From the sequence record SRR20825006_2611: 41,625 nucleotides of DNA; one strand, given 5' to 3'. Of the stretch, positions 29,356-41,625 are shown in pieces. Made by a program: the position numbers and the translations under genes. Positions within the stretch are counted from its first letter, which is position 1. The number at the start of each line of letters is the position of its first letter. A model generated the notes under the pieces. That model was given only the letters and a program-made list of their open reading frames with translations. It was not told the DNA's origin and made no database searches.

Positions 29356-29410
29356 AGCAAATAGAACGGTAAGGCTTAACAACGACCATTTTTGGCAAAC
29401 AAGCTGCCAT

Positions 29411-29638
29411 TTAATCAATGGAGTCTTGATTCGTGGAATCAGTCTTTATGGCGGCACTATCTTTTGTTTTATTGGATTCGGACCATTCCTTATACTTATC
29501 CATACTTTCAGTTTGGGTCTCTTTAACCTCCTTAAGTTCTTCTCCCTCTTTTGGATGATTTAATTTTTTCTCCCGGCAGGAAGTGGCAAGAGCCATCAAA
29601 AGAGATAATGCGAACAATAAACCATACTTCTTCATCAT
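29411..29638 (-). CDS. Small lipoprotein of unknown function
   Basis: MMKKYGLLFALSLLMALATSC lipoprotein signal then charged tail; start moved from 29749. Confidence 0.75.
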   Translation of the reverse strand: MMKKYGLLFALSLLMALATSCREKKLNHPKEGEELKEVKETQTESMDKYKEWSESNKTKDSAAIKTDSTNQDSID

Positions 29639-29664
29639 TATTTTTTTTAAGATTGTATAGAAAA

Positions 29665-29813
29665 ATAATATGTCTTTCTCTTGGACATGGTTCTTATCCG
29701 TTCGAAAATTGTCTTGATTCAAACAACCACACAAACTACTGTTAGTCAATCAGAAATGAATCAATTTTTTCTTGGAAAAAGCAAATACCCCCCTTCAATC
29801 TCCAGTATCTTGA
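29665..29813. promoter_or_regulatory. Divergent promoters with stress-cluster boxes
   Basis: Leftward: TTGATTCAAAC (29714-29724) 41 bp from CATATTAT (29665-29672, minus). Rightward: revcomp TTGATTCATTT (29754-29764) 41 bp from TATCTTGA (29806-29813). Confidence 0.55.
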
Positions 29814-29879
29814 AACTGGAATAAGAGCTGGATGTTTCCAGTTTTATTTTAAAAGAAATATTAATAAAAAACACACATT

Positions 29880-30413
29880 ATGAAAACTTTGAAAACAATA
29901 ACCGTATTGGCAACTTTTTTTGTTGCTTTCGGAACTTTTGCCCAAAACAGTAAGGACAAACAAATTATTGAAGATGCCAAAAAGGCTAAAAAACAGCTCA
30001 TTGCAAAAGATGCGGGACTTAAAAAGTTCTTTGAGACATCCACAGGGTATGTAATTTTCCCAAATGTTGGTGAAGGTGGCTTTATTTTAGGTGGTGCTTC
30101 GGGAAACGGAGTGGTATATGAGAACGGGAAAAAAGTAGGAATGGCCGACATGAAAAAGATTGATGTTGGGCTCCAAGCAGGAGGCCAGGCTTTGACCGAA
30201 GTTATCTTTTTTGAAACTGAAGACGCATTAAACGAGTTTAAAACCGGAAGCTATGCTTTTTCGGGTGACCTTTCTGCCATTGCCGTAAAATCCGGAGTTT
30301 CCAAAAGCGCAGATTATGACGATGGTGTTGTAGTATTTGCCATGCCTAAAGCGGGACTTATGGCAGATGCCTCTATCGGTGGCCAAAAATTTGAATATGT
30401 TCCTTTTCAATAG
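29880..30413 (+). CDS. SYLF/YSC84 lipid-binding domain protein, secreted
   Basis: Signal peptide; YVIFPNVGEGGFILGGASGNG, GLQAGGQ, GLMADASIGGQKF. Confidence 0.88.
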   Translation: MKTLKTITVLATFFVAFGTFAQNSKDKQIIEDAKKAKKQLIAKDAGLKKFFETSTGYVIFPNVGEGGFILGGASGNGVVYENGKKVGMADMKKIDVGLQAGGQALTEVIFFETEDALNEFKTGSYAFSGDLSAIAVKSGVSKSADYDDGVVVFAMPKAGLMADASIGGQKFEYVPFQ

Positions 30414-30435
30414 GATGTAATATATTATAGCTAGC

Positions 30436-30469
30436 AAAAAAGGTCGGTAGAAATACCGACCTTTTTTTT
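30436..30469. terminator. Bidirectional intrinsic terminator
   Basis: AAAAAAGGTCGGTA-GAAA-TACCGACCTTTTTT between convergent genes. Confidence 0.92.
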
Positions 30470-30516
30470 ACCCAGAATCAAATTTATGGTTTGATTTTGG
30501 CATCCGAATATACGTT

Positions 30517-31011
30517 CTATAAGTTCACAAATCCCTTTTCACTGGAACTGGAAGACACATTGCCTTCCTCTGCTCCAAAGAAGGGTACCAACTTACTGTT
30601 CTCGTTATCCCAGAAAAAAGCATTTTCCATATTAACGCTGATGAGTGTAAGGTCGGGGTCGTCCTTACCTTCGAACCAATTGAGCAAATGATGGTTCCAT
30701 AGTTCCTCTTTTTTCTGTTCGGCTATAATGTGTGTTGCGTTTCCAAAAATGGACAAGTATTGCTGCTTGTTGTCATCGTTATAGATTATCTGAACCCGAT
30801 TGTCTTCCTCGATATCCTTAAAAAGTCCACTATCCTTGGAAACAAAGAACCAAAGGTCTCCTTTTTCATCCATTTGTTGGACGGTCATCGGGCAGACCGA
30901 AAATGGTATGGTATTTAAATTACTGGCCATCATCACAGTTTTCTGTTCATCAATCAAAGTCCTGACTTTTCTGAGGCCTTCTTCATTTTTCATATAATTT
31001 CTCTTGTTCAT
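30517..31011 (-). CDS. Pyridoxamine 5'-phosphate oxidase-like general stress protein (YdaG/Gsp26-like)
   Basis: CPMTVQQMDEKGDLWFF, YLSIFGNA, LWN...WFEGKDDPDL, FWD motifs; alternative start at MKNEE. Confidence 0.88.
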   Translation of the reverse strand: MNKRNYMKNEEGLRKVRTLIDEQKTVMMASNLNTIPFSVCPMTVQQMDEKGDLWFFVSKDSGLFKDIEEDNRVQIIYNDDNKQQYLSIFGNATHIIAEQKKEELWNHHLLNWFEGKDDPDLTLISVNMENAFFWDNENSKLVPFFGAEEGNVSSSSSEKGFVNL

Positions 31012-31143
31012 CGTTTTTGTTTTTATGTATTATTGATTCAGTTATATCATCCGGCCAAGAAGGGCTCTTACTATATTTTCATCTACTGGCCCCGCTCTGA
31101 CCATCATCTACTTTAGTTTGATGATTGCATTTGGATGATTTCA

Positions 31144-31333
31144 TAAATCTAACCGAAATACAACTGTTGGCTTTGCTCTTTAGATAATATGTTGGACGTA
31201 ATCAAATAAATCACAATATTTCCATTCAAGATTCAACATCTCATATTCAATATATTACCCGCACACATTCACCATATACGGCAATCTTTCAACCATTAAC
31301 GTCAAAAAGTCCGTCGTATGTGCTTTATATTAA
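31144..31333. promoter_or_regulatory. Divergent promoters with stress-cluster boxes
   Basis: Leftward: TGGACGTAATC (31193-31203) 41 bp from TAGATTTA (31144-31151, minus). Rightward: revcomp TTGCCGTATAT (31274-31284) and TTGACGTTAAT (31295-31305), 41 and 20 bp from TATATTAA (31326-31333). Confidence 0.55.
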
Positions 31334-31401
31334 TATTGATGATGAACGGTACTGGGAAACGGCACCATTAAAATGAACTTTTAACCTTTAAAAAAATAGT
31401 T

Positions 31402-31542
31402 ATGAGTATTGCAGATAAAAGAAAATTTAAACGAAAAGTAAAACAGAACAATCCAACAAACCCTACTGGTAACACCACTATCGATACGAACAAATTTGAT
31501 ATTGATGAGAATACCATTAAAGAACAGCAGAATAAAGAATAA
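31402..31542 (+). CDS. 46-aa small protein MSIADKRKFKRKVKQNNPTNPTGNTTIDTNKFDIDENTIKEQQNKE (not in ORF track)
   Basis: A-rich Bacteroidota-type initiation region, own candidate promoter, tandem TAA TAA, terminator 25 bp downstream. Confidence 0.75.
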   Translation: MSIADKRKFKRKVKQNNPTNPTGNTTIDTNKFDIDENTIKEQQNKE

Positions 31543-31567
31543 TAAAAATAACTGTTAGTAGATTAAG

Positions 31568-31597
31568 AAAAAAGCTCTCGTAAAGAGAGCTTTTTTT
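31568..31597. terminator. Bidirectional intrinsic terminator
   Basis: AAAAAAGCTCTC-GTAAA-GAGAGCTTTTTTT between the sORF and the convergent AraC gene. Confidence 0.9.
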
Positions 31598-31693
31598 AAT
31601 GGTAATAAGTCCCGCAAGGAAACTATACTAATAAATGGATAACATAATTATGTTATGAATATATAGAGATACAACACTAATGTTGCAATTATT

Positions 31694-32716
31694 TTATGCT
31701 GAAATGGCAAAGCTTCTCTGTTTGTCCTTATACTCTTTGGGACTACAGTTATATTTTGCTTTAAAGATTTTTGAAAAATAACTTCTACTGATAAAACCAA
31801 TGCTGTAAACAACCTCGGAGATGTTCATATCGGTGGTCTTGATTAGATTCTCTGCCAATCGCACCCTTACATCCCTTATATAGTCCGTTACCGTTGTCCC
31901 GTGCATCATTTTAAAGCCCTCTTGCAATTTGGAAGGTGATAAACCTCCTTTTTTACAGAGATATGCTACAGATAGCTGTTTTTCGGGATAGTTATTAATA
32001 AAGACGGACAGTTCCCTTACAATCTCTCTTTCCTTTTTTGTCAACGAGGATTCTTGTACCGTCGCATTCTTAAGGTCATCGGAATGCTGCTGAATCTCTA
32101 GGGCCAAGATCAAATGTACCAACCCTTCTATCATCAACTTTCTGGCAATCCCGGTCACGGATACGGTATTTATTTGACGTACCTTTTCCGCTACTTTTAG
32201 GTTGTAAGAACCTATGTATGCAAAATTGTCCACAACATTATCCTTGAAGAACAGTTTTTGAAGTTCATGGTTTAAATGGTTCTCGTTTCCCGTTCTTTTG
32301 GTAGGGCTTACGATAACCAGTATCATTTTAAGGCGCATGTCCTTCTCAAAATAGAGAACATTGTCCTGTAACGTTTTGCTTGTTAGAATACCTGTCTGAA
32401 AATTTTCCAAATCATGTTTTTCACCTTTGCGTCCAAAGCTGTGCGACACTTGACCTTGTGAGCAATAGGCAAAACAAATTGGGGTATATTGGGTGGAACT
32501 TGCCACCAACATAACATCTTCCGTGAATTCCATGTCAAACTCCATGTAGGATATGCCTCCTTTAAAAGAAATGCCTTTTATAAGGCCTTGCCCTAATGGA
32601 TTGTCTATTTCGAGAATATGCTCCTCCGCATCATGTGTTAGGTTACCTGCAAAATCTGCTTGCAATTGTTCGAATACTTGATGGATTTTTGCTGTTTTTA
32701 GGGATATCGTTTTCAT
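31694..32716 (-). CDS. AraC-family transcriptional regulator (340 aa)
   Basis: C-terminal double HTH: LSPSKLQEGFK, MNISEVVYSIGFISRSYFSKIFKAKYNCSPKEY. Confidence 0.93.
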   Translation of the reverse strand: MKTISLKTAKIHQVFEQLQADFAGNLTHDAEEHILEIDNPLGQGLIKGISFKGGISYMEFDMEFTEDVMLVASSTQYTPICFAYCSQGQVSHSFGRKGEKHDLENFQTGILTSKTLQDNVLYFEKDMRLKMILVIVSPTKRTGNENHLNHELQKLFFKDNVVDNFAYIGSYNLKVAEKVRQINTVSVTGIARKLMIEGLVHLILALEIQQHSDDLKNATVQESSLTKKEREIVRELSVFINNYPEKQLSVAYLCKKGGLSPSKLQEGFKMMHGTTVTDYIRDVRVRLAENLIKTTDMNISEVVYSIGFISRSYFSKIFKAKYNCSPKEYKDKQRSFAISA

Positions 32717-32775
32717 GGCTTATTGTGTTTTAGGTTGTTTTCTATTACTGATTGATAATGAAAAATCTTGTTTTG

Positions 32776-32839
32776 TAAAGATCACCTACTAAGCCACAAA
32801 GTATTTTATACAACTTTTGGATTCTGTTATAGAACTTTT
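32776..32839 (-). promoter_or_regulatory. AraC(340) promoter with 21-bp-spaced direct repeat
   Basis: -7-like GATCTTTA (32776-32783, minus); TTATACAACTTTT (32806-32818) and TTATAGAACTTTT (32827-32839). Confidence 0.62.
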
Positions 32840-32861
32840 TGATATGCCCGGAAATAGTGTT

Positions 32862-32885
32862 AAAAAGCTCTTAAACAAGCTTTTT
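32862..32885 (-). terminator. Weak terminator-like hairpin after the kinase
   Basis: AAAAAGCT-CTTAAACA-AGCTTTTT. Confidence 0.4.
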
Positions 32886-32911
32886 GATAGAGTCTTTGAA
32901 TAAGTTCCGGA

Positions 32912-35083
32912 CTAAACAGGAAGGTAGATGGTAAAAACGGAGCCCCTGTTCTTGTCACCGGAGGCATGGATAAAACCGTGGTGGTTCTCCACAATTTTTT
33001 TGCATATGGCCAACCCGATACCTGTGCCGGAGTATTGGGTCTTTGAATGTAGCCGCTGGAAAACTTCGAAGATTTTTTTGGCACTTACATTGTCAAATCC
33101 GATGCCATTGTCGGTTAAACTTATCTTGAAGTAGTTTTTAGCGTGTTTTAGGAATTCTTCTGGCATTTGATCATTGGCAACCATTTCCGATGTTACCTTT
33201 ATCTTGGGCGCTACTTTGGGATTTCGATATTTTAAGGAATTGGACACCAAATTGCCGAAAAGTTGCTCAAGCTGGAAACCCACACCGTGTACCATTGGTA
33301 GATTATCCCAAACGATACTTGCATCTTCACCTTTAATGCGCTCTGCATTTTCTTCGCTGACCTTTTTCATAACACTGTTAAGGTCGACTACCTCAAAATC
33401 ATCGTGGGTACTATCTATTCGAGAATAGTTCAATAGGTTACGAATCAAGGATTGCATCCTGGCCGCTACTTTGTCTATTCTATCAAAATATACTCTTCCC
33501 CTCTCGGACAATTTATTTTTTTCCTCCCCATCAATACGGGATATAAACATTTGGATTTTTCGCAGCGGCTCCTGTAAATCATGGCTTACCACCCTATTGA
33601 ACGATTCCAGTTCCACATTGCTGCGCTCTAGTTCAAGATTCTTTATCCGCAATGTATTTTCTGCAGCTATCTGGTCGGATACGTCCTGTACTACACCGAT
33701 CATTACAGTTCTCCCATCCTTTTGTATAAACTGACCCTTGGTACGTATGTGTTTTACTTCTCCGCTTTTAGATATAATTCTATATGTATGGTCCCGTGGT
33801 TCTTGCTTTGCTCTATGCCATTCCCCGTATTCATCATATTGCTTCAAATCATCCGGATGCACAAAACTCCTGTATCGTTCCAGTGATGGTTTAAACTCGT
33901 TTGGTTCGCACCCCAATATTCGGTAGTAGTTTTCGGATATTTCTGCCTCCCCGGTATCTAAATACCATGTATAACTTCCAATTTTTGCCACCTTCTTGGC
34001 CTCGGACATAATAAAGTTCTGAACTTCCAGTTCTTGGTTGGCCCTTAATAGGTTTTCCTTGGCCTTGTACTCCTCTGTATTGTTTCGCACAACTTCCAAT
34101 ATTCCCCCATCCATTGCCCTAACAAAGGTGTGGAACCAAAATTGTTGACCCTCCACGGTAACCTGACGTTCGAAATCTATGGTCTTGTTTTCAAGAAAAC
34201 AATCTATCATCCGTTGCAGTTCGTTGTTCTTGAGAACAAACGGAAAAACATCGGTTATGGGCTTTCCAAGAAGTTCATCCGGCTCTAGGTTTAAATAATC
34301 CCTATTGCATATATTGGCGAAGGCTACCCTAAAATCGACCACCTTTGCATTGGAATCGTAAATGGGCTCATAATAGTTCATTATGTTATCGGTACTCTGA
34401 ACAATGTTCTGCAACAAAGCCTCAGAGGATTGAATTTTGTTTTTGTGCCTCCGTAACCTGAAAAATGCTATAGTGAACATAACAATGGAAAACAGGGCAA
34501 GGAACAATGTGGTTAGCGGCGTAAGAAAGGTAAGCCTCCTATAGGTCACCAATTTGTCCTGAAGAAAGTTCTCGTTATTCGCCAGCATATTTCTCTTGAA
34601 TCCCCTAAGTTTTTTTAGGATGGAAGCTGCTCTCTCCACATACACCATGGCGGTAGAATCTGCCTCCATTGGCTTTACCTTACCGTGTAATGCGGTCAGG
34701 GTCGTATGTAGGCTATCCTTTAACTTTGAAACAGTATCCAAATTTCTCCGATGGTAGGGCATCTCCTTGACCAGTCCATACAACCTATCGAAGGTTCTAT
34801 CATTTTGCAACTTATGGTCTATGTACGATTCTTCAAAAGTTGAATCCTTTAAAATCACAGATCTGAACTCGGCAGACTCCATCAGGTCATATTGGGTGAA
34901 CAACTTATTTATTTCTTTGTCCACCGTTAAGGAATGGGATACCATCTCTGCGGAAACTTCCAGATCTCTTATCTGTTTGAACAATACGGTGGTAATAAAA
35001 AGAAGCAATACTATGGCCAATGCCAAGGCGATTCTGTCCACTACGGGTGATTGGGCTATGCGACGAAAAATCTTAAAATCCAT
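32912..35083 (-). CDS. Membrane sensor histidine kinase (CHASE3-like periplasmic domain, two PAS domains, HisKA, HATPase)
   Basis: Two TM helices; VSHSLTV CHASE3-like start; PAS motifs (DFRVAFAN, FVHPDD, GVVQDVS); H-box VSHDLQEPLRKI; NLVSNSLKY, DNGIGF, FQRLH, GTGIGLAIC. Confidence 0.93.
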   Translation of the reverse strand: MDFKIFRRIAQSPVVDRIALALAIVLLLFITTVLFKQIRDLEVSAEMVSHSLTVDKEINKLFTQYDLMESAEFRSVILKDSTFEESYIDHKLQNDRTFDRLYGLVKEMPYHRRNLDTVSKLKDSLHTTLTALHGKVKPMEADSTAMVYVERAASILKKLRGFKRNMLANNENFLQDKLVTYRRLTFLTPLTTLFLALFSIVMFTIAFFRLRRHKNKIQSSEALLQNIVQSTDNIMNYYEPIYDSNAKVVDFRVAFANICNRDYLNLEPDELLGKPITDVFPFVLKNNELQRMIDCFLENKTIDFERQVTVEGQQFWFHTFVRAMDGGILEVVRNNTEEYKAKENLLRANQELEVQNFIMSEAKKVAKIGSYTWYLDTGEAEISENYYRILGCEPNEFKPSLERYRSFVHPDDLKQYDEYGEWHRAKQEPRDHTYRIISKSGEVKHIRTKGQFIQKDGRTVMIGVVQDVSDQIAAENTLRIKNLELERSNVELESFNRVVSHDLQEPLRKIQMFISRIDGEEKNKLSERGRVYFDRIDKVAARMQSLIRNLLNYSRIDSTHDDFEVVDLNSVMKKVSEENAERIKGEDASIVWDNLPMVHGVGFQLEQLFGNLVSNSLKYRNPKVAPKIKVTSEMVANDQMPEEFLKHAKNYFKISLTDNGIGFDNVSAKKIFEVFQRLHSKTQYSGTGIGLAICKKIVENHHGFIHASGDKNRGSVFTIYLPV

Positions 35084-35158
35084 TAGTAGTTGCAGTAACC
35101 TGTTTTAAGGTTTTATTATAAGTAGCACATAATTAAAACATATGCTGCTCAATTTTGA

Positions 35159-35626
35159 TCACAATCGCAACAAAAAATTATCCCGATTGAGGTTAGAGGT
35201 GTGGTACTGCCAGTTTATCTGCAAAACCTTCTCTATGGAATCCCTCAATTTACTAAAGTTATTGGGCTTGTTCAAATAAACATTGGCTCCATTGACAAAA
35301 GTTTCCTCGATATCGTTTTCGGAACATGAAGTTGAATATATGGCAATGCACACATCATTGAGCTTTGGATTTGAACGAATCTCCTTTAAACACTGCATTC
35401 CATTTTTAATGGGCATGTTCAAGTCCAAAAAAATCAAATTCGGCAGAATAATGTTAGGAAGGTTCAGGTAGTCCATCAATTCCTGTCCATCGCTCAATAA
35501 CGATAGTTTTGTTCGGATGGAAATATCCTCAATAGCTTCTTGAAAAAATAAGCGGTCGTCCTCATCATCATCGGCAAGGGCTACATTTAAAATCTGTTTG
35601 CCTGAATTGGAAGGAAATTTATTCAT
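35159..35626 (-). CDS. Single-domain response regulator (Rcp1-like receiver)
   Basis: LADDDEDD, IFLDLNMP, YSTS, YLNKP; ATGA overlap with the upstream AraC. Confidence 0.93.
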   Translation of the reverse strand: MNKFPSNSGKQILNVALADDDEDDRLFFQEAIEDISIRTKLSLLSDGQELMDYLNLPNIILPNLIFLDLNMPIKNGMQCLKEIRSNPKLNDVCIAIYSTSCSENDIEETFVNGANVYLNKPNNFSKLRDSIEKVLQINWQYHTSNLNRDNFLLRL

Positions 35627-36186
35627 ATAGTTTGTTGTATTCTAGTACCTCTTCGTCTTTCCAATATTTCTTGAAACTTGGTAGGTGTCAATCCCGTTAT
35701 TTTCTTAAACTGTCCGGACAAGTGCGCTACACTACTATAGTTTAAACGATAGGCTATTTCTGTTAATGTTAGGTCGGTGTCGGCCATAAGGTCTTTGGCA
35801 TGGTCGACTTTTCTGAGAATCACAAAATTCTCTATTGATGTATAGGTTGTTTCAGAAAAAAGGTTGGAGAGATAGGTGTAGGAATAGTTCAATTTATCAG
35901 CAAGGTACTCAGAGACCTTTTGCGATTTTAACTGGTCATCTTCCAACATCTCGTTTATGGTATTCTTTATTCGTTGCACCAAAGCTGTTTTCTGATCGTT
36001 CAGGACATAAATGCCATATGCATTCAAATTATTTAACAATTCCTGCATCTCTTCATCAGAAATTGCCCGCTTTATCTCTATCTCACCAGTACCATGAAGC
36101 AGGTGGGGAATATCCAATTTATCCAATTGCTCCTTTAAAATGGTTTTACAAGTGATATTTAAATCATATTTGACACTAATTTTCAT
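35623..36186 (-). CDS. Short AraC-family regulator (187 aa)
   Basis: YSYTYLSNLFSE, LTEIAYRLNYSSVAHLSGQFKKITGLTPTKF. Confidence 0.93.
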   Translation of the reverse strand: MKISVKYDLNITCKTILKEQLDKLDIPHLLHGTGEIEIKRAISDEEMQELLNNLNAYGIYVLNDQKTALVQRIKNTINEMLEDDQLKSQKVSEYLADKLNYSYTYLSNLFSETTYTSIENFVILRKVDHAKDLMADTDLTLTEIAYRLNYSSVAHLSGQFKKITGLTPTKFQEILERRRGTRIQQTI

Positions 36187-36238
36187 CCTTCTCCTGCATA
36201 ATTTGGCAAAGTCTCTTTAAGGCCGGGGCAAGCCATTG

Positions 36239-36297
36239 CAAGTATAGACTAAATTTAAATAATTATTTAACACAATTGCGGTGTTTTTGGCCAATAT
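36239..36297 (-). promoter_or_regulatory. Promoter of araC(187)-receiver-kinase operon with stress-cluster boxes
   Basis: TATACTTG (36239-36246, minus); TTAACACAATT (36267-36277, 20 bp) and TTGGCCAATAT (36287-36297, 40 bp). Confidence 0.55.
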
Positions 36298-36496
36298 TGA
36301 ACTTACCGCATAAATGAAGGGAAGAATGTCTTGATGACCTATTCAATACTCTAATACAGTGTCTTTCCTTAAAAAAAAACTCTGTTTAATGGAACATACA
36401 TCCACGTTACCGTTAAGAAGAAAATAAATACTAGTAGAAGGGTACTAGAATTTTTGAAAGGAATTTTGCAGATTCGTTGTTTATTAAATGGAAAAA

Positions 36497-36832
36497 TCAA
36501 GAATCAATGCTTGCCTTATCGGAAACATTCTCATCGGGAATGGCCTTAAAGAATTCGGCTGCATCCAAATCGGCATTGGGACCATACCCTAATAAATAGG
36601 TTCCTTTTTTTCCATCATTGGTTTCCAAAACATATAAAATTGACATGTCCGACGGGTTGCTCATACCTTCATAACGATGGTCGGCAACAATATGGATGTC
36701 TTCCGGGGAATAGGTTGTTTTAGAATTGGAAGCAATCAGTTTTCCTTCCTCGAACCTAAAATTGGCAGTATATCCCTTTTCTTGATATGCTTTTATATAA
36801 TCCTTTTCGTGCTTTGCGTTTTCATTTTCCAT
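36497..36832 (-). CDS. Small acidic Bacteroidota-type protein of unknown function
   Basis: KGYTANF and RYEGMSNPSDMSILYVLET.DG.KG motif; start ATG 36832 chosen because the -7 box overlaps the 36853 start. Confidence 0.8.
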   Translation of the reverse strand: MENENAKHEKDYIKAYQEKGYTANFRFEEGKLIASNSKTTYSPEDIHIVADHRYEGMSNPSDMSILYVLETNDGKKGTYLLGYGPNADLDAAEFFKAIPDENVSDKASIDS

Positions 36833-36850
36833 CCCTGATGCTATTTTCAT

Positions 36851-36931
36851 CAAATATGGGGAAATACAACTATTTTGGTTGACACATTACCTAACATTCT
36901 TGACCCATTTAAAAATAAAATTGGCACATAA
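36851..36931 (-). promoter_or_regulatory. Promoter with three boxes at 21-bp period
   Basis: CATATTTG (36851-36858, minus); TTGACACATTA (36879), TTGACCCATTT (36900), TTGGCACATAA (36921). Confidence 0.72.
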
Positions 36932-37045
36932 CTGAAAAATATACGTAATTAACAGTTTAAAACTAAATAATAGTGTCTTTGGCAATCTTCTTTTTACAAG
37001 TTGATCATAGCCCGGCCATAGCCTACTGTCTTATAGATTATAGCA

Positions 37046-38077
37046 ATGAGCGTTACATTTGAAATACGTGATACGGACACCAAACAATTGATCAATGATC
37101 TGGCCGATAACCTTAAAATAGATGTCGAGGAAGAAAACAACGAACACTGCCTACGTTTACCCTCCAAATTGGGTTCAGGGTTCGTTAAGGGCACTTGTTT
37201 TGAAAACGGAGTGGGCGTTTTGGAATTTGATTGCCAACTAAAAAAAGAACTGGTACTGGAATTCAAAAAAGGATTGGTACACCCTTTAAAACTTATTTTT
37301 AACAGGGAATCCCCTATTGTGCACAGGTTCGATGAAATCGATGGGGAGCATGAAATACAACGATTGGAGAACGCTATTTTATCGAGCACGCCACACAATA
37401 ACCATATATTCCGTTTTCCGGCCAATCAACCCATTTGTGTTTATAGTTTGGAGATCAACAGGAAACTTTTTGAGGATAAGATCAGTGAGTTCCTTCCTGA
37501 AATGAATACAGATTTAATGGATCTCTTCCGCGATCTGAACGGTACCCAACTGTTTTATCACAAATCCCATTACAGTCTGGAAATTGCAAAGTTTATGGAA
37601 GAATTTACAGAGTGTGATCTAACTGATTTTATGAAGACTGTATATCAGGAAGGCAAGGCATATGAAATACTTTCACATCAGTTACAACAGTATCTAGATG
37701 ACCTGAACGGGTCTGGAGAACATAAAATACTCAGACAGGCCACCCTATCCAAAATTGAAAAAGCTGCAGAAATAATCCATGATGAGCTAAACAGAATGGA
37801 CAATATTGTTAGTTTGGCCAAAAGAGTGGGATTGAACCAAACCACATTGCAACTTGGGTTTAAAAAGCTTTACAATGCATCGGTAAACGAATACATCCGA
37901 AATTACAGGATTGAAAAGACCAAAGAATACCTGGAAAATACCGACATGAACATTACTGAAATAAGTTATAAGGTAGGGATAAATTCCAGAAGCTATCTTT
38001 CCAAGCTCTTTAAGGAAAAGTACAATATCACACCAAAGGAATATCACACTCAGGTCAAAAATGGCCATTCAAAATAA
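37046..38077 (+). CDS. AraC-family transcriptional regulator (343 aa), paralog-like to 31694-32716
   Basis: GLNQTTLQLGFK, DMNITEISYKVGINSRSYLSKLFKEKYNITPKEY; N-terminal LGSGFVKGTCFENGV resembles LGQGLIKGISFKGGI. Confidence 0.93.
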   Translation: MSVTFEIRDTDTKQLINDLADNLKIDVEEENNEHCLRLPSKLGSGFVKGTCFENGVGVLEFDCQLKKELVLEFKKGLVHPLKLIFNRESPIVHRFDEIDGEHEIQRLENAILSSTPHNNHIFRFPANQPICVYSLEINRKLFEDKISEFLPEMNTDLMDLFRDLNGTQLFYHKSHYSLEIAKFMEEFTECDLTDFMKTVYQEGKAYEILSHQLQQYLDDLNGSGEHKILRQATLSKIEKAAEIIHDELNRMDNIVSLAKRVGLNQTTLQLGFKKLYNASVNEYIRNYRIEKTKEYLENTDMNITEISYKVGINSRSYLSKLFKEKYNITPKEYHTQVKNGHSK

Positions 38078-38113
38078 TTTTCTATTTTGATTTAATCTTT
38101 ACTTGTACAGTTT

Positions 38114-38554
38114 TTATGATTGTGCAATCTTTCCCAATCTTTTTATGATGTTCAAGTCATTGGAGATTTTGTTCATTTGTTGGCGAATGATTACCTCTAC
38201 ACTGGAAGGCAGATCTATTTCCTGCAATACCATTCTATAACTATCAAGCGTTGCTCCCTCGGCTTCTATGGCTCCTACAAACATAGGCTCGTTCCTGTTT
38301 ATGGAAAAATCCATCCATCCCTGTTGCAATGTTCCTGCGGAGCCTACGTTTTCCCTTATTTCTTGATTGAACTTCATCATCTCTATTTTCAGTTCATGCC
38401 CAAAATGACAGCGTTCCTTGGCCTTATCGAAAAAAAAGTTTTTTAAAGAGGGACTATCGGCTAATTTCCCCGCCCTTTCAAACTCATTTTCAGAAATATA
38501 TATTTTTTCCAGAAGATTATTGAGTTTCTTCCCCAGTGATCGAGAATAGTTCAT
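38114..38554 (-). CDS. PA2169 / DUF2383-like ferritin-like four-helix bundle protein
   Basis: KLNNLLEK, LKNFF..KAKER..FGHELK.E, GSAGTLQQGWMD pattern; appears diverged. Confidence 0.8.
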   Translation of the reverse strand: MNYSRSLGKKLNNLLEKIYISENEFERAGKLADSPSLKNFFFDKAKERCHFGHELKIEMMKFNQEIRENVGSAGTLQQGWMDFSINRNEPMFVGAIEAEGATLDSYRMVLQEIDLPSSVEVIIRQQMNKISNDLNIIKRLGKIAQS

Positions 38555-38614
38555 TTACTTTTGATTTTAAGGGGGATGGCTTTATCGGGGGGAGTAAGAA
38601 TTCATCCTTATAAC

Positions 38615-38812
38615 TAAAGATACTTCAAAATAAAGTTCAGCGACTATCTCAGAAAAAATGATTGTTGACCCATTTGATCAACATATCTGTACAAAGAACA
38701 CAAAAACATGCCCATTGCTGTCTTAATGGAAGCACAGGGGTTGACCTCCACTTTTTGAGTCAATATTTTTTTTGAATATGCTAAGGCAAAAAAATAAAAA
38801 CCTATAGTTTCA
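38615..38812. promoter_or_regulatory. Divergent promoters with stress-cluster boxes
   Basis: Leftward: TTGACCCATTT (38665-38675) 42 bp from TATCTTTA (38615-38622, minus). Rightward: revcomp TTGACTCAAAA (38753-38763) and TTAGCATATTC (38774-38784), 41 and 20 bp from TAGTTTCA (38805-38812). Confidence 0.6.
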
Positions 38813-38869
38813 CCCAACCAATGATTAATCATTGGAATAACCTAGCCATCAACTTTAAGATGACTCATT

Positions 38870-39070
38870 ATGAATAAGAAAGATCAAAAACAGCCTCAAG
38901 AAAATACGGAACTGGTTAAAGATGAAAACAGCCCCAAACGAAACTATATTTTCCAAAAAAGTGGTATTACCAAACTAGGATTTGTAATCATATTGGCTAT
39001 ACTCATACTCATCATATTTGGAATTGTTCTTTCGGGGCTCTTTTTTGAAACACCGGACTTTGCTTCCTAG
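38870..39070 (+). CDS. Small single-pass membrane protein (66 aa)
   Basis: Charged N-terminus, one long hydrophobic helix; fills an intergenic gap and has a candidate promoter. Confidence 0.72.
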   Translation: MNKKDQKQPQENTELVKDENSPKRNYIFQKSGITKLGFVIILAILILIIFGIVLSGLFFETPDFAS

Positions 39071-39117
39071 GCATTGTACTGGTATAATGTTTTACCTTTG
39101 GTCGGCTGAACCTGGAT

Positions 39118-39726
39118 TCAACTTTCCCAAACTTCTTTAAATACAAAGTCTTCTTGGGGTATTCTTTGTCGGTCGGCCTGCTCGCTTTCCTGAAGTTTTT
39201 TGGGCAGCTTATCCAGTTGTCCACCATAATATCCTACAGCAATAGCGGATGAAACATGGTATCCGTCCGGCACATTGAATTCTTTCTCGGCTTTTTTCCA
39301 ATCCACACCGGCCATGTGGTGCAGTCCTATATCCAAATATTGGGCTTGTACGGACATACTGCCCAAGCAAAGCCCCAAATCGTGCAGCGCATGGAAGTTT
39401 TCTTTTCCTTCATCCGTTGTTTCTTTGTAAATGGCCAACATTAGCAAAGGGGCTTCTGGAGCCCATTTCTTGTTAAAATCACTTAAGCAATCTACAATCT
39501 TTTCAAAAGCTTCAGAGCCTTTTTCGGCATAAATGAATCGCCATGGTTGCAAATTATTTGAACTGGCGGACCATCGTGCAGCTTCAAAAAGTTGATTCAA
39601 TTGGCCTTTTTTAATTTTCTCTTCCCTAAATGTTCTGGGGCTATATCTTTGCTTTAACAAAGCAAAAATTTCGTGATCGGTATCCGCTATTTTACCTAGT
39701 CTGATTTGTTCCAATTCTTTTTTCAT
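39118..39726 (-). CDS. Nitroreductase family protein
   Basis: QRYSPRTF, EAARWSASSNNLQPWRF, HDLG, HHMAG, IAVGY. Confidence 0.93.
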   Translation of the reverse strand: MKKELEQIRLGKIADTDHEIFALLKQRYSPRTFREEKIKKGQLNQLFEAARWSASSNNLQPWRFIYAEKGSEAFEKIVDCLSDFNKKWAPEAPLLMLAIYKETTDEGKENFHALHDLGLCLGSMSVQAQYLDIGLHHMAGVDWKKAEKEFNVPDGYHVSSAIAVGYYGGQLDKLPKKLQESEQADRQRIPQEDFVFKEVWES

Positions 39727-39740
39727 TGCTCTTTTTTATT

Positions 39741-39800
39741 TAAGTATACTTTTATCAATTCAGATCAGTTGTTGCTAAACCTTATTATTTTGACGCTATT
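39741..39800 (-). promoter_or_regulatory. Nitroreductase promoter with stress-cluster box
   Basis: TATACTTA (39741-39748, minus); TTGACGCTATT (39790-39800) 41 bp upstream. Confidence 0.58.
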
Positions 39801-39866
39801 GCATTAAAGAAATCCCATCGGTCTTTTTTGAACAAAATCAAGTTCAATCAATCTTTTGCCATCACG

Positions 39867-40883
39867 TTATTGAACATCTTCTTTACCATACTCCCTTTTG
39901 TAAATCCTTACGATTACTAAAAACAGATTGATTAGCAAAGGGCCAAAAACCAGGCCTATGAATCCAAACAGCGGTATTCCCACAATAACCCCTATCAAAG
40001 TGATCAGCGGGTGCACATCGTCCAGTTTTTTGAGCACGTACAATCTGATGATGTTGTCCGTTAAGCCTACCACAACAATCCCATATATCAGAATCCCCCA
40101 AGCTTGAAAGGTTTGCCCATTGCTCAGGGAGAGTATAAAGACCGGAAGGGTTCCTAAAAAATTACCTACAAAGGGAATCATTGAGCCAATGGTAACCATG
40201 AGAGCCCAAAAAAATGGGTTTTCGATTCCAAATATCAAGAAACCGATCAAAGCAACAACTCCTTGGGCCAAAGCCACCAATGGGATTCCCAATGTATTTG
40301 CTTTGACAATATCCCGTATTTCCTCTCCAATAATCGTTAGGTTCTTGTTGCTTATGGGAACATAATCAAAAAGAGATTTGTAAAGTTTTTTTTGATTGGT
40401 AAGCATGTAATACAGAAGAAAATACATTATGGATATGGCGATTGCGGTATTGAAGGTACCCCCCACAAAACCTTGCAGACTTCCCGACAGCCATTCAGAT
40501 ACGGCAGAAGCATCTACTTGTGAGCTGAACTTGTACCCCACTAGATTTTCAAAATACTGTATTTGCGATTTTATAATGGATGTGAGCTTTTCCGAATTAT
40601 CCAACGCCTTACTGATTTTGTTTCCCAACATTAGCAAGGCCCCCGAAATCGGCAACAGTATAATAAAAAAGGACATTACCATTAGCAAACTGGCAGAGAG
40701 TACTGGATTCCATCCTTTGCCTACCAATTTTTTCATTGGCTTTTTCAATAATACAAACAACGTAATTGTTCCGAGTACTCCCGAAAAATAGGGCGCCATT
40801 TCCAACATGATCAACCCTCCGATCAATAAAATTAAAAGGAGAATAAAAATCTGGCGGATTATTTTTGGGTGGATATATTTCAT
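39867..40883 (-). CDS. AI-2E family transporter (UPF0118)
   Basis: Multiple TM helices; SMIPFVG, DNIIR, HPLITLIGVIVG..LFGFIGLVFGP. Confidence 0.92.
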   Translation of the reverse strand: MKYIHPKIIRQIFILLLILLIGGLIMLEMAPYFSGVLGTITLFVLLKKPMKKLVGKGWNPVLSASLLMVMSFFIILLPISGALLMLGNKISKALDNSEKLTSIIKSQIQYFENLVGYKFSSQVDASAVSEWLSGSLQGFVGGTFNTAIAISIMYFLLYYMLTNQKKLYKSLFDYVPISNKNLTIIGEEIRDIVKANTLGIPLVALAQGVVALIGFLIFGIENPFFWALMVTIGSMIPFVGNFLGTLPVFILSLSNGQTFQAWGILIYGIVVVGLTDNIIRLYVLKKLDDVHPLITLIGVIVGIPLFGFIGLVFGPLLINLFLVIVRIYKREYGKEDVQ

Positions 40884-40911
40884 AAACTTATTTAAATTGA
40901 AATCGCTTTTA

Positions 40912-41151
40912 TCAGTGGTTTCTCAAAGCACCTATGAGCTCTTTTTTTGACATTTTGGAACGGCCTTCTATACCTACCATCTTGGCCTTTTTATATAGTT
41001 CTTGCTTGGTCCATTCTTCATAAGGGCTTGCTTTCCCTCCTTTTTTTCCTGAATCCGGTGTATTTGCAATCCGGGCCGACTTTTCTTTACTGTAGCCCTT
41101 ATCCCTCAGAGCTTCATACTGTTCTTCATTTTTTATTTGTGGATTTGGCAT
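40912..41151 (-). CDS. Small basic protein with C-terminal Rho_N-like helical domain
   Basis: IKNEEQYEALRDKGYSKEKSARIAN plus WTKQELYKKAK..GIEGRSKMSKKELIGALR; start moved to ATG 41151 (79 aa). Confidence 0.88.
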   Translation of the reverse strand: MPNPQIKNEEQYEALRDKGYSKEKSARIANTPDSGKKGGKASPYEEWTKQELYKKAKMVGIEGRSKMSKKELIGALRNH

Positions 41152-41196
41152 AACACTAATTTTTGATTTGTTATAAGATTTAATACCTGACCTTTT

Positions 41197-41359
41197 CAAA
41201 ATTTAAAAAATCAAGTGGGTATGCTTGCCCCATTTGACTTTTTTATTGTCTTTATAGGCATAATCAATCCTTGATAACCGTAAAAAAGATCAAACTTTTG
41301 ATTGCGTCAATATTTTAAGTTTCCGAGGTGATCTCCCGCGATGGAAAGAAATACATTGG
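41197..41359. promoter_or_regulatory. Divergent promoters with stress-cluster boxes
   Basis: Leftward: TTGCCCCATTT (41225-41235) 20 bp from AAATTTTG (41197-41204, minus; assignment ambiguous). Rightward: revcomp TTGACGCAATC (41300-41310) 41 bp from TACATTGG (41352-41359). Confidence 0.6.
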
Positions 41360-41391
41360 ATGTATAATTATTAATTTAAAATTTTACAGAT

Positions 41392-41577
41392 ATGAACAAC
41401 GATCAATTAGAAGGCAAGTGGAAACAGGTAAAAGGAAAGTTCAAAGAAAAATATGGTGAGCTTACTGATGACGACCTGAAATATTCTGAAGGAAAGTTTG
41501 ACCAAATGTTGGGAAGACTTCAAGAAAAGACAGGAAATTCCAAAGAAGCTTTGAAAAAGGAAATCGAAAAATTATAG
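41392..41577 (+). CDS. csbD: CsbD family general stress protein
   Basis: DQLEGKWKQVKGKFKEKYGELTDDDL...GRLQEKTG signature. Confidence 0.95.
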   Translation: MNNDQLEGKWKQVKGKFKEKYGELTDDDLKYSEGKFDQMLGRLQEKTGNSKEALKKEIEKL

Positions 41578-41595
41578 GTTAAACCGGTTTTCCAT

Positions 41596-41625
41596 AAAAA
41601 AGCCCTCAAAATTTTGAGGGCTTTT
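41596..41625 (+). terminator. Intrinsic terminator (probably bidirectional; T tract cut by the window edge)
   Basis: Perfect palindrome AAAAGCCCTCAAAATTTTGAGGGCTTTT (41598-41625). Confidence 0.88.

Follow-up and report, generated by a model that had tools for sequence, protein, structure and literature searches.

A two-AraC relay, rather than a stress sigma factor, appears to turn on general stress genes in flavobacteria

General stress responses are driven by sigma factors in Escherichia coli (RpoS) and in alphaproteobacteria (EcfG), where the uppermost input components are a kinase and a single-domain receiver, as is also proposed for the locus described here. Among AraC-type regulators, the paralogues MarA, SoxS and Rob share one box, and SoxR acts on SoxS in a two-step logic. 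Flavobacteria, which are major polymer degraders in the sea, in soil and on roots, appear to turn on general stress genes by a relay of two AraC proteins and not by a stress sigma factor. The present analysis concerns the right end of a 41,625-nucleotide stretch of DNA from sequence record SRR20825006_2611 (the whole stretch is hereafter called the window), in which a repeated operator, box A, precedes stress genes that surround three AraC genes (araC340, araC187 and araC343) and the genes of a sensor kinase and a single-domain receiver. An earlier note on this DNA had proposed that an AraC activator, one of three candidates, drives general-stress genes from housekeeping-sigma promoters, and an AraC-read direct repeat with a 21-bp period at such promoters agrees with the spacing, co-occurrence and cross-genus model tests presented below. 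The evidence favours AraC340 as the protein that reads box A and suggests an additional tier, absent from that first reading, in which the kinase, the receiver and AraC187 would act via a second operator, box B.

In Bacillus subtilis, csbD, dps, katE, ydaG and ytxH belong to the SigB list, according to the accessible part of PMC7824861, and the same five families carry box A here. Unlike in sigma-driven responses, the sigma-A -7 element is kept, and specificity lies in activator boxes and in two tiers. As in AraC/XylS activators, the half-sites are 21 bp apart and the proximal one abuts the upstream promoter element, whereas the targets are not a single operon but promoters dispersed over the genome and numbering in the tens, and one AraC apparently transcribes the other. 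AraC340 combines a cupin plus helical regulatory domain with a double helix-turn-helix, like AraC, RhaS, ExsA and CuxR. Several AraC340 paralogues with matching recognition helices may share one box and two steps would be involved, as for MarA/SoxS/Rob; unlike in that system, the half-sites are paired, the activators are full-length two-domain proteins and the input would come from a kinase. AraC-type domains of Bacteroides have been described with 21-bp repeats (PMC3878776) and with footprints on such repeats (PMC13292587), as far as the accessible parts of these papers go. The Bacteroides hybrid two-component systems they treat, such as BT4124, unite kinase, receiver and AraC functions with 21-bp repeats, as the present locus does; here, in contrast, the functions are divided among three separate open reading frames (ORFs) rather than joined in one chain, and the targets are stress and not glycan genes.

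The window came from a Flagellimonas, its AraC187 being 99% identical to the F. aurea counterpart, and a genome (G001) identical (100%) to window positions 29400-41625 was used as a genome-wide stand-in for that of the window. The right end forms a stress island of SYLF, gsp26/YdaG-like, DUF2383, nitroreductase, AI-2E, DUF7218/Rho_N and CsbD genes, inside which the kinase, the receiver and the three AraC genes are also found; the Pfam domain HTH_18 is present in AraC340, AraC187 and AraC343 alike. Promoters were compared across 70 related loci; the tests used promoters of other genomes, without the window, the G001 copy of it or the two nearest species. Co-occurrence was counted in 149 Flavobacteriaceae genomes, one per genus, with G001 and G037 dropped because heptamer arrays inflate their match counts.

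Box A consists of a 13-bp half-site, TYWWTTGRGTYAA, repeated directly with a 21-bp period, the two half-sites ending 41 and 20 bp ahead of a housekeeping -7 element, TAnnTTTG. The consensus and position (-12 to -5) of this element, as given in the accessible part of PMC9723704, would place the half-sites near -66..-54 and -45..-33. The earlier note had spoken of one box at a fixed distance; the fixed distance stood, and the unit proved to be a pair of 13-bp half-sites instead of a single box. All 13 of the 11-mers it quoted lay at the coordinates and on the strands where it had placed them, its gaps of 41, 20 and 62 bp were recovered in the window, and none of the window -7 boxes was a perfect TAnnTTTG, as it had claimed.

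An expectation-maximisation (EM) run with the proximal half unseeded recovered the same half-site twice at a 21-bp period, followed by 20 bp and TAnnTTTG. Among 290 de-duplicated stress promoters of other genomes, the distance from GTCAA to TAnnT peaked at 41 bp (27 promoters' worth) and 20 bp (17), with 0-10 matches at other distances, and no distance peak was observed in 141 regulator promoters. Of 289 promoters, a matrix made from the window alone scored in 67 when the gap was 41 and in 46 when it was 20, against 3-20 at other gaps, at most 5 in shuffles and 20 on the reverse strand, the last count probably coming from divergent promoters. In the cleanest of these tests, the model was trained on 73 promoters of non-Flagellimonas loci with a score threshold of at least 14, and 99 of 176 test promoters reached it, against 0-1 in five shuffles; in the comparison with shuffles that the earlier note had suggested, box, gap and -7 element were beyond chance. 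When the half-site spacer was altered, at most 13 promoters scored, and a spacer to the -7 box of 19 or 21 bp left 31 and 40 promoters, respectively, against the 99 at 20 bp. Under this model, 11 of 113 genes outside the recurring families scored at least 14. Among fresh AraC340 loci, 17 of 26 promoters carried box A.

About 11 promoters of the window had been credited with the box, and, under a model refined on other genomes, all 11 beat 1000 dinucleotide shuffles, whereas 16 of 16 other window genes had no box A above shuffles (best 139/1000). Eight promoters were not equalled by any shuffle (0/1000). On the plus strand, these are the sites of the SYLF/Ysc84 gene 29880-30413 (29752..29813, 17.0 bits), of a 46-amino-acid (aa) ORF at 31402-31542 (31272..31333, 20.4 bits), of a 66-aa membrane protein gene at 38870-39070 (38751..38812, 21.4 bits) and of csbD at 41392-41577 (41298..41359, 21.7 bits). 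On the minus strand, they precede the gsp26/YdaG-like gene 30517-31011 (31144..31205, 21.2 bits), a 111-aa gene at 36497-36832 (36851..36912, 25.7 bits, with a third half-site 21 bp farther upstream), the nitroreductase gene 39118-39726 (39741..39802, 22.4 bits) and the DUF7218/Rho_N gene 40912-41151 (41197..41258, 20.1 bits). As only 28 bp separate the latter from the AI-2E gene 39867-40883, this gene would be under the same box A. The three other sites, all on the minus strand, were weaker: that of a 75-aa lipoprotein gene at 29411-29638 (29665..29726, 13.7 bits, 2/1000), that of the DUF2383/PA2169-like gene 38114-38554 (38616..38677, 13.2 bits, 6/1000), with a strong distal half and a poor -7 register, and that of the araC187-receiver-kinase operon (36239..36300, 14.6 bits, 1/1000). 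With Flagellimonas absent from the training set, scores of at least 14 were obtained for 9 of these 11 promoters, those of the lipoprotein and PA2169-like sites being below 12. The box proposed for the araC187 operon beat the shuffles and was nevertheless weak, with only its proximal half convincing (distal half 1.4 bits) and only 3 of 44 araC187 promoters reaching 14; a feedback on the operon through it is possible.

Across G001, the two-box pattern gave 56 matches against 25 in the control, and 25 of the best 30 lay outside long ORFs; the L102 site was found inside an ORF on either strand. The G001 target list, compiled with this pattern and a matrix scan of 212.5 kb more rather than of the whole genome, added Dps, YtxH, DUF5670, PfpI, hemerythrin, two short-chain dehydrogenases, second DUF2383 and gsp26 genes, a glyoxalase-like protein, YetF, MgtC, SRAP and an outer-membrane barrel, so that the box A regulon of G001 would comprise about 30 or more promoters. 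Across loci, in counts that include the training loci, box A recurred ahead of more than 20 unrelated gene families, among them DUF1328 (27/27), CsbD (19/22), nitroreductase (16/18), DUF892 (13/14), YtxH (11/12), Dps (6/6) and HPF-like genes (5/7), and it was found in 0 of 42 kinase promoters. It had been predicted that katE, dps, osmC and trehalose genes would carry the box. This held for dps and for the large catalases (3/3, small ones 0/2; catalases were never in training), and not for otsA-type trehalose genes (0/3) nor for most OsmC-family loci, of which 24 of 25 lacked box A and one carried it via an operon. Two loci of genus g161 have box A at genes that appear OsmC-like by sequence. 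A protective gene set typical of sigma-driven stress responses is thus present under box A, and its output would be a general stress response, a label drawn from gene content.

The proposed reader of box A, AraC340 (31694..32716, minus strand), has a cupin-type regulatory domain and an AraC double helix-turn-helix. Its predicted structure (predicted local distance difference test, pLDDT, 89) displayed an AraC-type cupin domain with dimerisation helices. The N-domain resembled CuxR (Z 10.4; residues 31-218, root-mean-square deviation (rmsd) 3.8, 160 aligned) and ExsA (Z 9.4), and the DNA-binding domain that of AdpA (Z 16.2, rmsd 1.5, 110 aligned); none of the curated AraC families reached its cut-off. 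The two recognition-helix regions are nearly invariant across the AraC340 family, which is what a single common operator would predict. Its members, up to 7 paralogues per genome, turned up in 13 of the 23 Flavobacteriaceae sampled and in 1 of the 278 other Bacteroidota. In the co-occurrence set, the 32 genomes with a close AraC340 (E<=1e-55) had a mean of 13.3 box A matches, against 3.0 in the other 117, the reversed controls being 4.4 and 4.1; in six positive genomes with matches listed, most matches lay outside the fetched regions. The seven genomes with AraC340 and without AraC187 had 9.9 matches, and the 76 with neither protein 2.9. At 11 loci with AraC187 and without AraC340, an absence verified genome-wide by profile for the genomes of 5 of them, 0 of 24 promoters scored above 14 (best 7.4). 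AraC340 is very probably the reader of box A. Two other candidates were discarded: AraC187, by the AraC340/AraC187 co-occurrence counts and the 24 promoters just mentioned, and AraC343 (37046..38077, plus strand), a divergent and accessory AraC340 paralogue whose own promoter has neither box, rejected as a required reader because genomes with a single family member still have box A.

Islands with three or four AraC340 paralogues were observed at six loci (L036, L039, L042, L044, L050 and L135), and two paralogue types in them have a weak box A (14-21 bits) in their promoters, which suggests feedback within the family. In sequencing run X1, one contig (31729-32741) nearly exactly spans araC340; its depth is 743, and that of its neighbours 7-39, although contig depth cannot rank genes. 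An array of (GGGTTAA)n of at least 700 bp lies at G001:C19:102111-102816 and beyond, and similar arrays occur in G037 and G501; since three units make 21 bp, such an array strings box-A core words together in register and is regarded here as chance or a decoy.

Upstream of this step, araC187 (35623..36186, minus strand) encodes a small N-domain followed by an AraC helix-turn-helix, overlaps by 4 bp the gene of the single-domain receiver (35159..35626, minus strand; Asp68 and a conserved C-terminal tail), its proposed partner, and is followed by the sensor histidine kinase (32912..35083, minus strand; weak CHASE3, PAS, PAS_3, HisKA and HATPase domains, His501). The regulatory part of AraC187 is a small domain only, with a weak match to a CopA metal-binding domain (E 0.31). 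Where AraC187 lacked the motif MV[SC]xRC, the receiver gene came next in 42 of 42 cases, and where the motif was present in 0 of 6; the conserved tail was found in 39 of 42 AraC187-adjacent receivers and in 2 of 22 others. The predicted AraC187-receiver complex scored 0.69, against 0.00 for the best control; of 157 solved pairs 116 reach this mark, as do 2 of 215 mismatched ones. Model runs agreed in at least 68% of contacts, and the partners had pLDDT of at least 84. This supports binding between the modelled AraC187 and receiver, and since a receiver-AraC structure (BT4124) exists, the complex may have passed by likeness. In the model, receiver residues 107-113 and 136-155 face AraC187 residues 115-135 and 164-181, so that the interface would mostly spare the recognition helices, unlike in BT4124, whose receiver latches a recognition helix by other receiver surfaces (accessible part of PMC13292587). 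The receiver and the kinase would in this way gate AraC187. As a guess, the kinase could sense an osmotic or envelope change at its periplasmic domain and a metabolic signal at its PAS domains. At four loci (L204, L146, L145 and L077), AraC187 relatives with MV[SC]xRC and without a receiver stand beside CsbD-like or YtxH genes, ahead of which box B is found in L145, L146 and L077; these relatives are a possible third input to the same programme.

Box B (AATTnTRTAAC and then AATTnTRTAA as a 21-bp repeat, 22 bp ahead of the -7 box; spacing 21, 27 and 48) emerged from promoters of AraC340-free loci without box A. Its matrix was built from 30 sites seeded by regular expression in 14 such loci, some of these sites being probably chance; a free EM run, contaminated by coding sequence and giving many false window matches, had been replaced. 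The sole window site of at least 13 bits (20.8, with the model trained on other genomes) was the araC340 promoter (32776..32836, minus strand), in which two half-sites 21 bp apart precede by 22 bp a weak -7 element (32783-32776), with a predicted araC340 transcription start near 32771. The contigs of runs X1 and X4 over araC340 end at 32741 and 32744, about 30 bp behind this predicted start, and that of X3 continues, which gives a weak hint.

Among 38 clade-I araC340 genes (clade I, support 97, derives from a quick tree; the near-duplicate rows L055, L056 and L061 were left out), 35 had box B in the upstream 800 bp, against 0 of 38 reversed controls and 1 of 40 other paralogues; 8 of 12 fresh genes had it as well. 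The three clade-I misses were G146, in which AraC187 was not found, and second copies in G001 and G098. Among genomes with both AraCs, 22 of 23 had box B just before araC340, as the only match in 14, and seven genomes without AraC187 gave 0, 0, 1, 0, 0, 0 and 0 matches; the pattern used pooled sites, so that presence before araC340 is partly circular, while uniqueness is not. The whole G001 genome had two matches, the araC340 promoter site being an exact one and the other (L154, G001:C93:161451-161511) separating the gene of a CxxC-type small AraC from that of a heavy-metal P-type ATPase. In AraC340 loci, box B was absent before CsbD (0/18), DUF1328 (0/26) and YtxH (0/11), DUF5670, which adjoins araC340 on the upstream side, being the lone tested stress gene with it. 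In genomes without AraC340, box B stood directly ahead of stress genes, and G134, one of these, had 20 matches against 3 in the control.

Box B also adjoins AraC187-family genes in other Bacteroidota families, and this recurrence in unrelated settings ties the motif to their DNA-binding domain; the AraC187 family is very probably the reader of box B. The CxxC-type small AraCs beside metal-transport genes of Bacteroidota belong to the same family and have the same box B, while AraC187 differs from them in that the MV[SC]xRC motif is gone and a receiver has been acquired as its dedicated partner. The placement of box B between a CxxC-type AraC and a heavy-metal ATPase recurs in G143, G021, G006, G073 and G106, which suggests a family-wide operator of an undescribed metal regulon. 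In other genera and family f14 (L178, L179, L182, L183, L189 and L192), box B lies 275-480 bp upstream of araC187, suggesting an autoregulation that Flagellimonas does not have.

We consider it likely that these elements form one circuit, in which the kinase acts on the receiver and AraC187, these on araC340 through box B, and AraC340 on stress promoters through box A, the AraC proteins serving as activators of a general stress output. The kinase would phosphorylate the single-domain receiver, as gene order and the intact His501 and Asp68 suggest, and the receiver would join AraC187 as a separate subunit, forming a split response regulator, as modelled and as co-variation supports. Acting on box B, a site recognised by its sequence, AraC187 would turn on araC340 and have hardly any other target in this genome. 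Two AraC340 subunits would then occupy the half-sites of box A, whose positions and spacing were observed, and would recruit sigma-A polymerase to promoters with a weak -7 element, among them those of csbD, dps, ytxH, pfpI and ydaG-like genes. In AraC340-free lineages, box B would act directly on stress genes, and some AraC187-free lineages keep box A with stand-alone AraC340 paralogues.

Some observations weigh against this circuit. Six AraC187-only genomes presented a mild box A excess (5.8 vs 2.9). In the fresh genus g161, from whose counts G501 was dropped because its heptamer array inflates them, 15 AraC340-positive genomes had 10.8 matches against 10.4 in the reversed control; their density was 2.13 matches/Mb against 0.99 in 55 negative genomes (controls 1.98 and 1.80), and the best g161 sites cluster near the araC340 gene. 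Box A occurred with no AraC340 found in G468 (11 matches), in G009 (10) and, as a 28-bit site, in G500, and AraC340 was accompanied by only 2 and 3 matches in G115 and G075; 11 genomes with more distant AraC340-like proteins had no box A excess, though G136 has similar helices. Box B follows metal-type AraC187 paralogues too, three more of them in G001, for which reason AraC187 is singled out by synteny and not by the motif. The E-value cuts (1e-55 and 1e-44) were picked after the data had been seen, the genome-scan patterns for both boxes derive in part from the genomes that were scanned, and the genomes compared are kin.

Box A might be the AraC340 regulon under a different upper tier, a metal-type paralogue reading box B, AraC187 acting without the receiver, or a cupin ligand setting AraC340. 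The presence of box B behind CxxC-type paralogues ahead of metal-transport genes, the seven genomes that keep box A with AraC187 not found, and the AraC-type regulatory domain of AraC340 fit this arrangement, which we nevertheless regard as unlikely: araC187, receiver, kinase, box B and araC340 recur as one cassette in many genera, the clade-I araC340 of G146, where AraC187 was not found, is without box B, and AraC187 and the receiver co-vary and form a modelled complex. It is quite improbable that the sites are real and the AraC proteins repress, or that the regulon answers one narrow signal. Imperfect -7 boxes and a rigid 20-bp spacing to them fit activation via polymerase contact, and the targets overlap the B. 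subtilis SigB list (accessible part of PMC7824861), even though the proximal half-site covers the upstream promoter region and the otsA-type and most OsmC-family loci have no box A.

An unlinked reader of box A, whether a LytTR-type regulator, an extracytoplasmic function (ECF) sigma or an extra sigma-A paralogue, is highly improbable. LytTR-type regulators do use 21-bp repeats, and G001 has four sigma-A-like genes (L262-L265; C1, C82 and C19), three of which are 58-83% identical to the primary one, with two in each of three other genomes tested. However, G131 has a single sigma-A-like gene and 19 box A matches, none of 11 sigma-A-like genes carries box A or box B, and the same target genes are without box A where AraC340 is absent. 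No LytTR was found among 19 window proteins or in the 35 of 59 recurring cluster families scanned, no genome-wide LytTR search being made, and these families included one sigma family (3 loci). RpoS was below its family cut-off in 5 of 5 genomes, and a region-3 sigma search, in which ECF sigmas were not surveyed, returned only sigma-A-like proteins of about 287 aa. That box A is chance in AT-rich DNA, or promoter ancestry without function, is scarcely credible: the shuffles, spacer scans and strand tests, with the cross-genus model and window shuffle tests foremost, largely refute chance, and the box precedes more than 20 unrelated gene families, its best genome matches lying mostly outside long ORFs. 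Orthologous promoters are not independent, on the other side, and a strict single-box pattern gave 12 matches in G001 against 13 in the control, a pattern too weak to keep and replaced by the two-box model.

Outside the stress island, the window is polysaccharide-utilisation-like by sequence at 350-25287, with neither box in the promoters tested. Its genes are presumably a SusC/SusD-like pair, two large glycoside-hydrolase-like genes, an operon of sugar isomerase, kinase and aldolase-like genes, and GntR- and Nudix-type regulators. At 41581-41625, 3' of csbD and where the match to G001 contig C41 ends, inverted repeats likely form a terminator.

The literature covered, mostly non-subscription papers, gave no account of these regulators, these boxes or a general stress regulator of Bacteroidota, nor of the way in which flavobacteria coordinate their starvation and stress genes, and AraC, general stress and RpoS do not occur in the main text of PMC9723704. 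The individual parts are of known kinds, and the new element would be a general stress circuit in which an AraC cascade is combined with a split response regulator. With somewhat better than even confidence, this would be the general stress master circuit of Flavobacteriaceae, the first for Bacteroidota and sigma-independent, in which a receiver docks by its tail on a formerly metal-sensing AraC, and in which a second AraC was inserted as an amplifier, moving the regulon from box B to box A, with three wiring states extant. The same genes stand in some genomes under box B and in others under box A, with box B one tier higher, which makes a clean case of regulon rewiring. The boxes would also assign a likely stress role to small unannotated proteins (DUF1328, DUF5670, DUF7218 and the 111-aa and 66-aa proteins). 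The analysis names the regulators and gives the sequences of two operators and the order in which the proteins would act; if true, AraC activators at housekeeping promoters can make up a general stress response, and the missing master stress switch of these abundant flavobacteria would be supplied.

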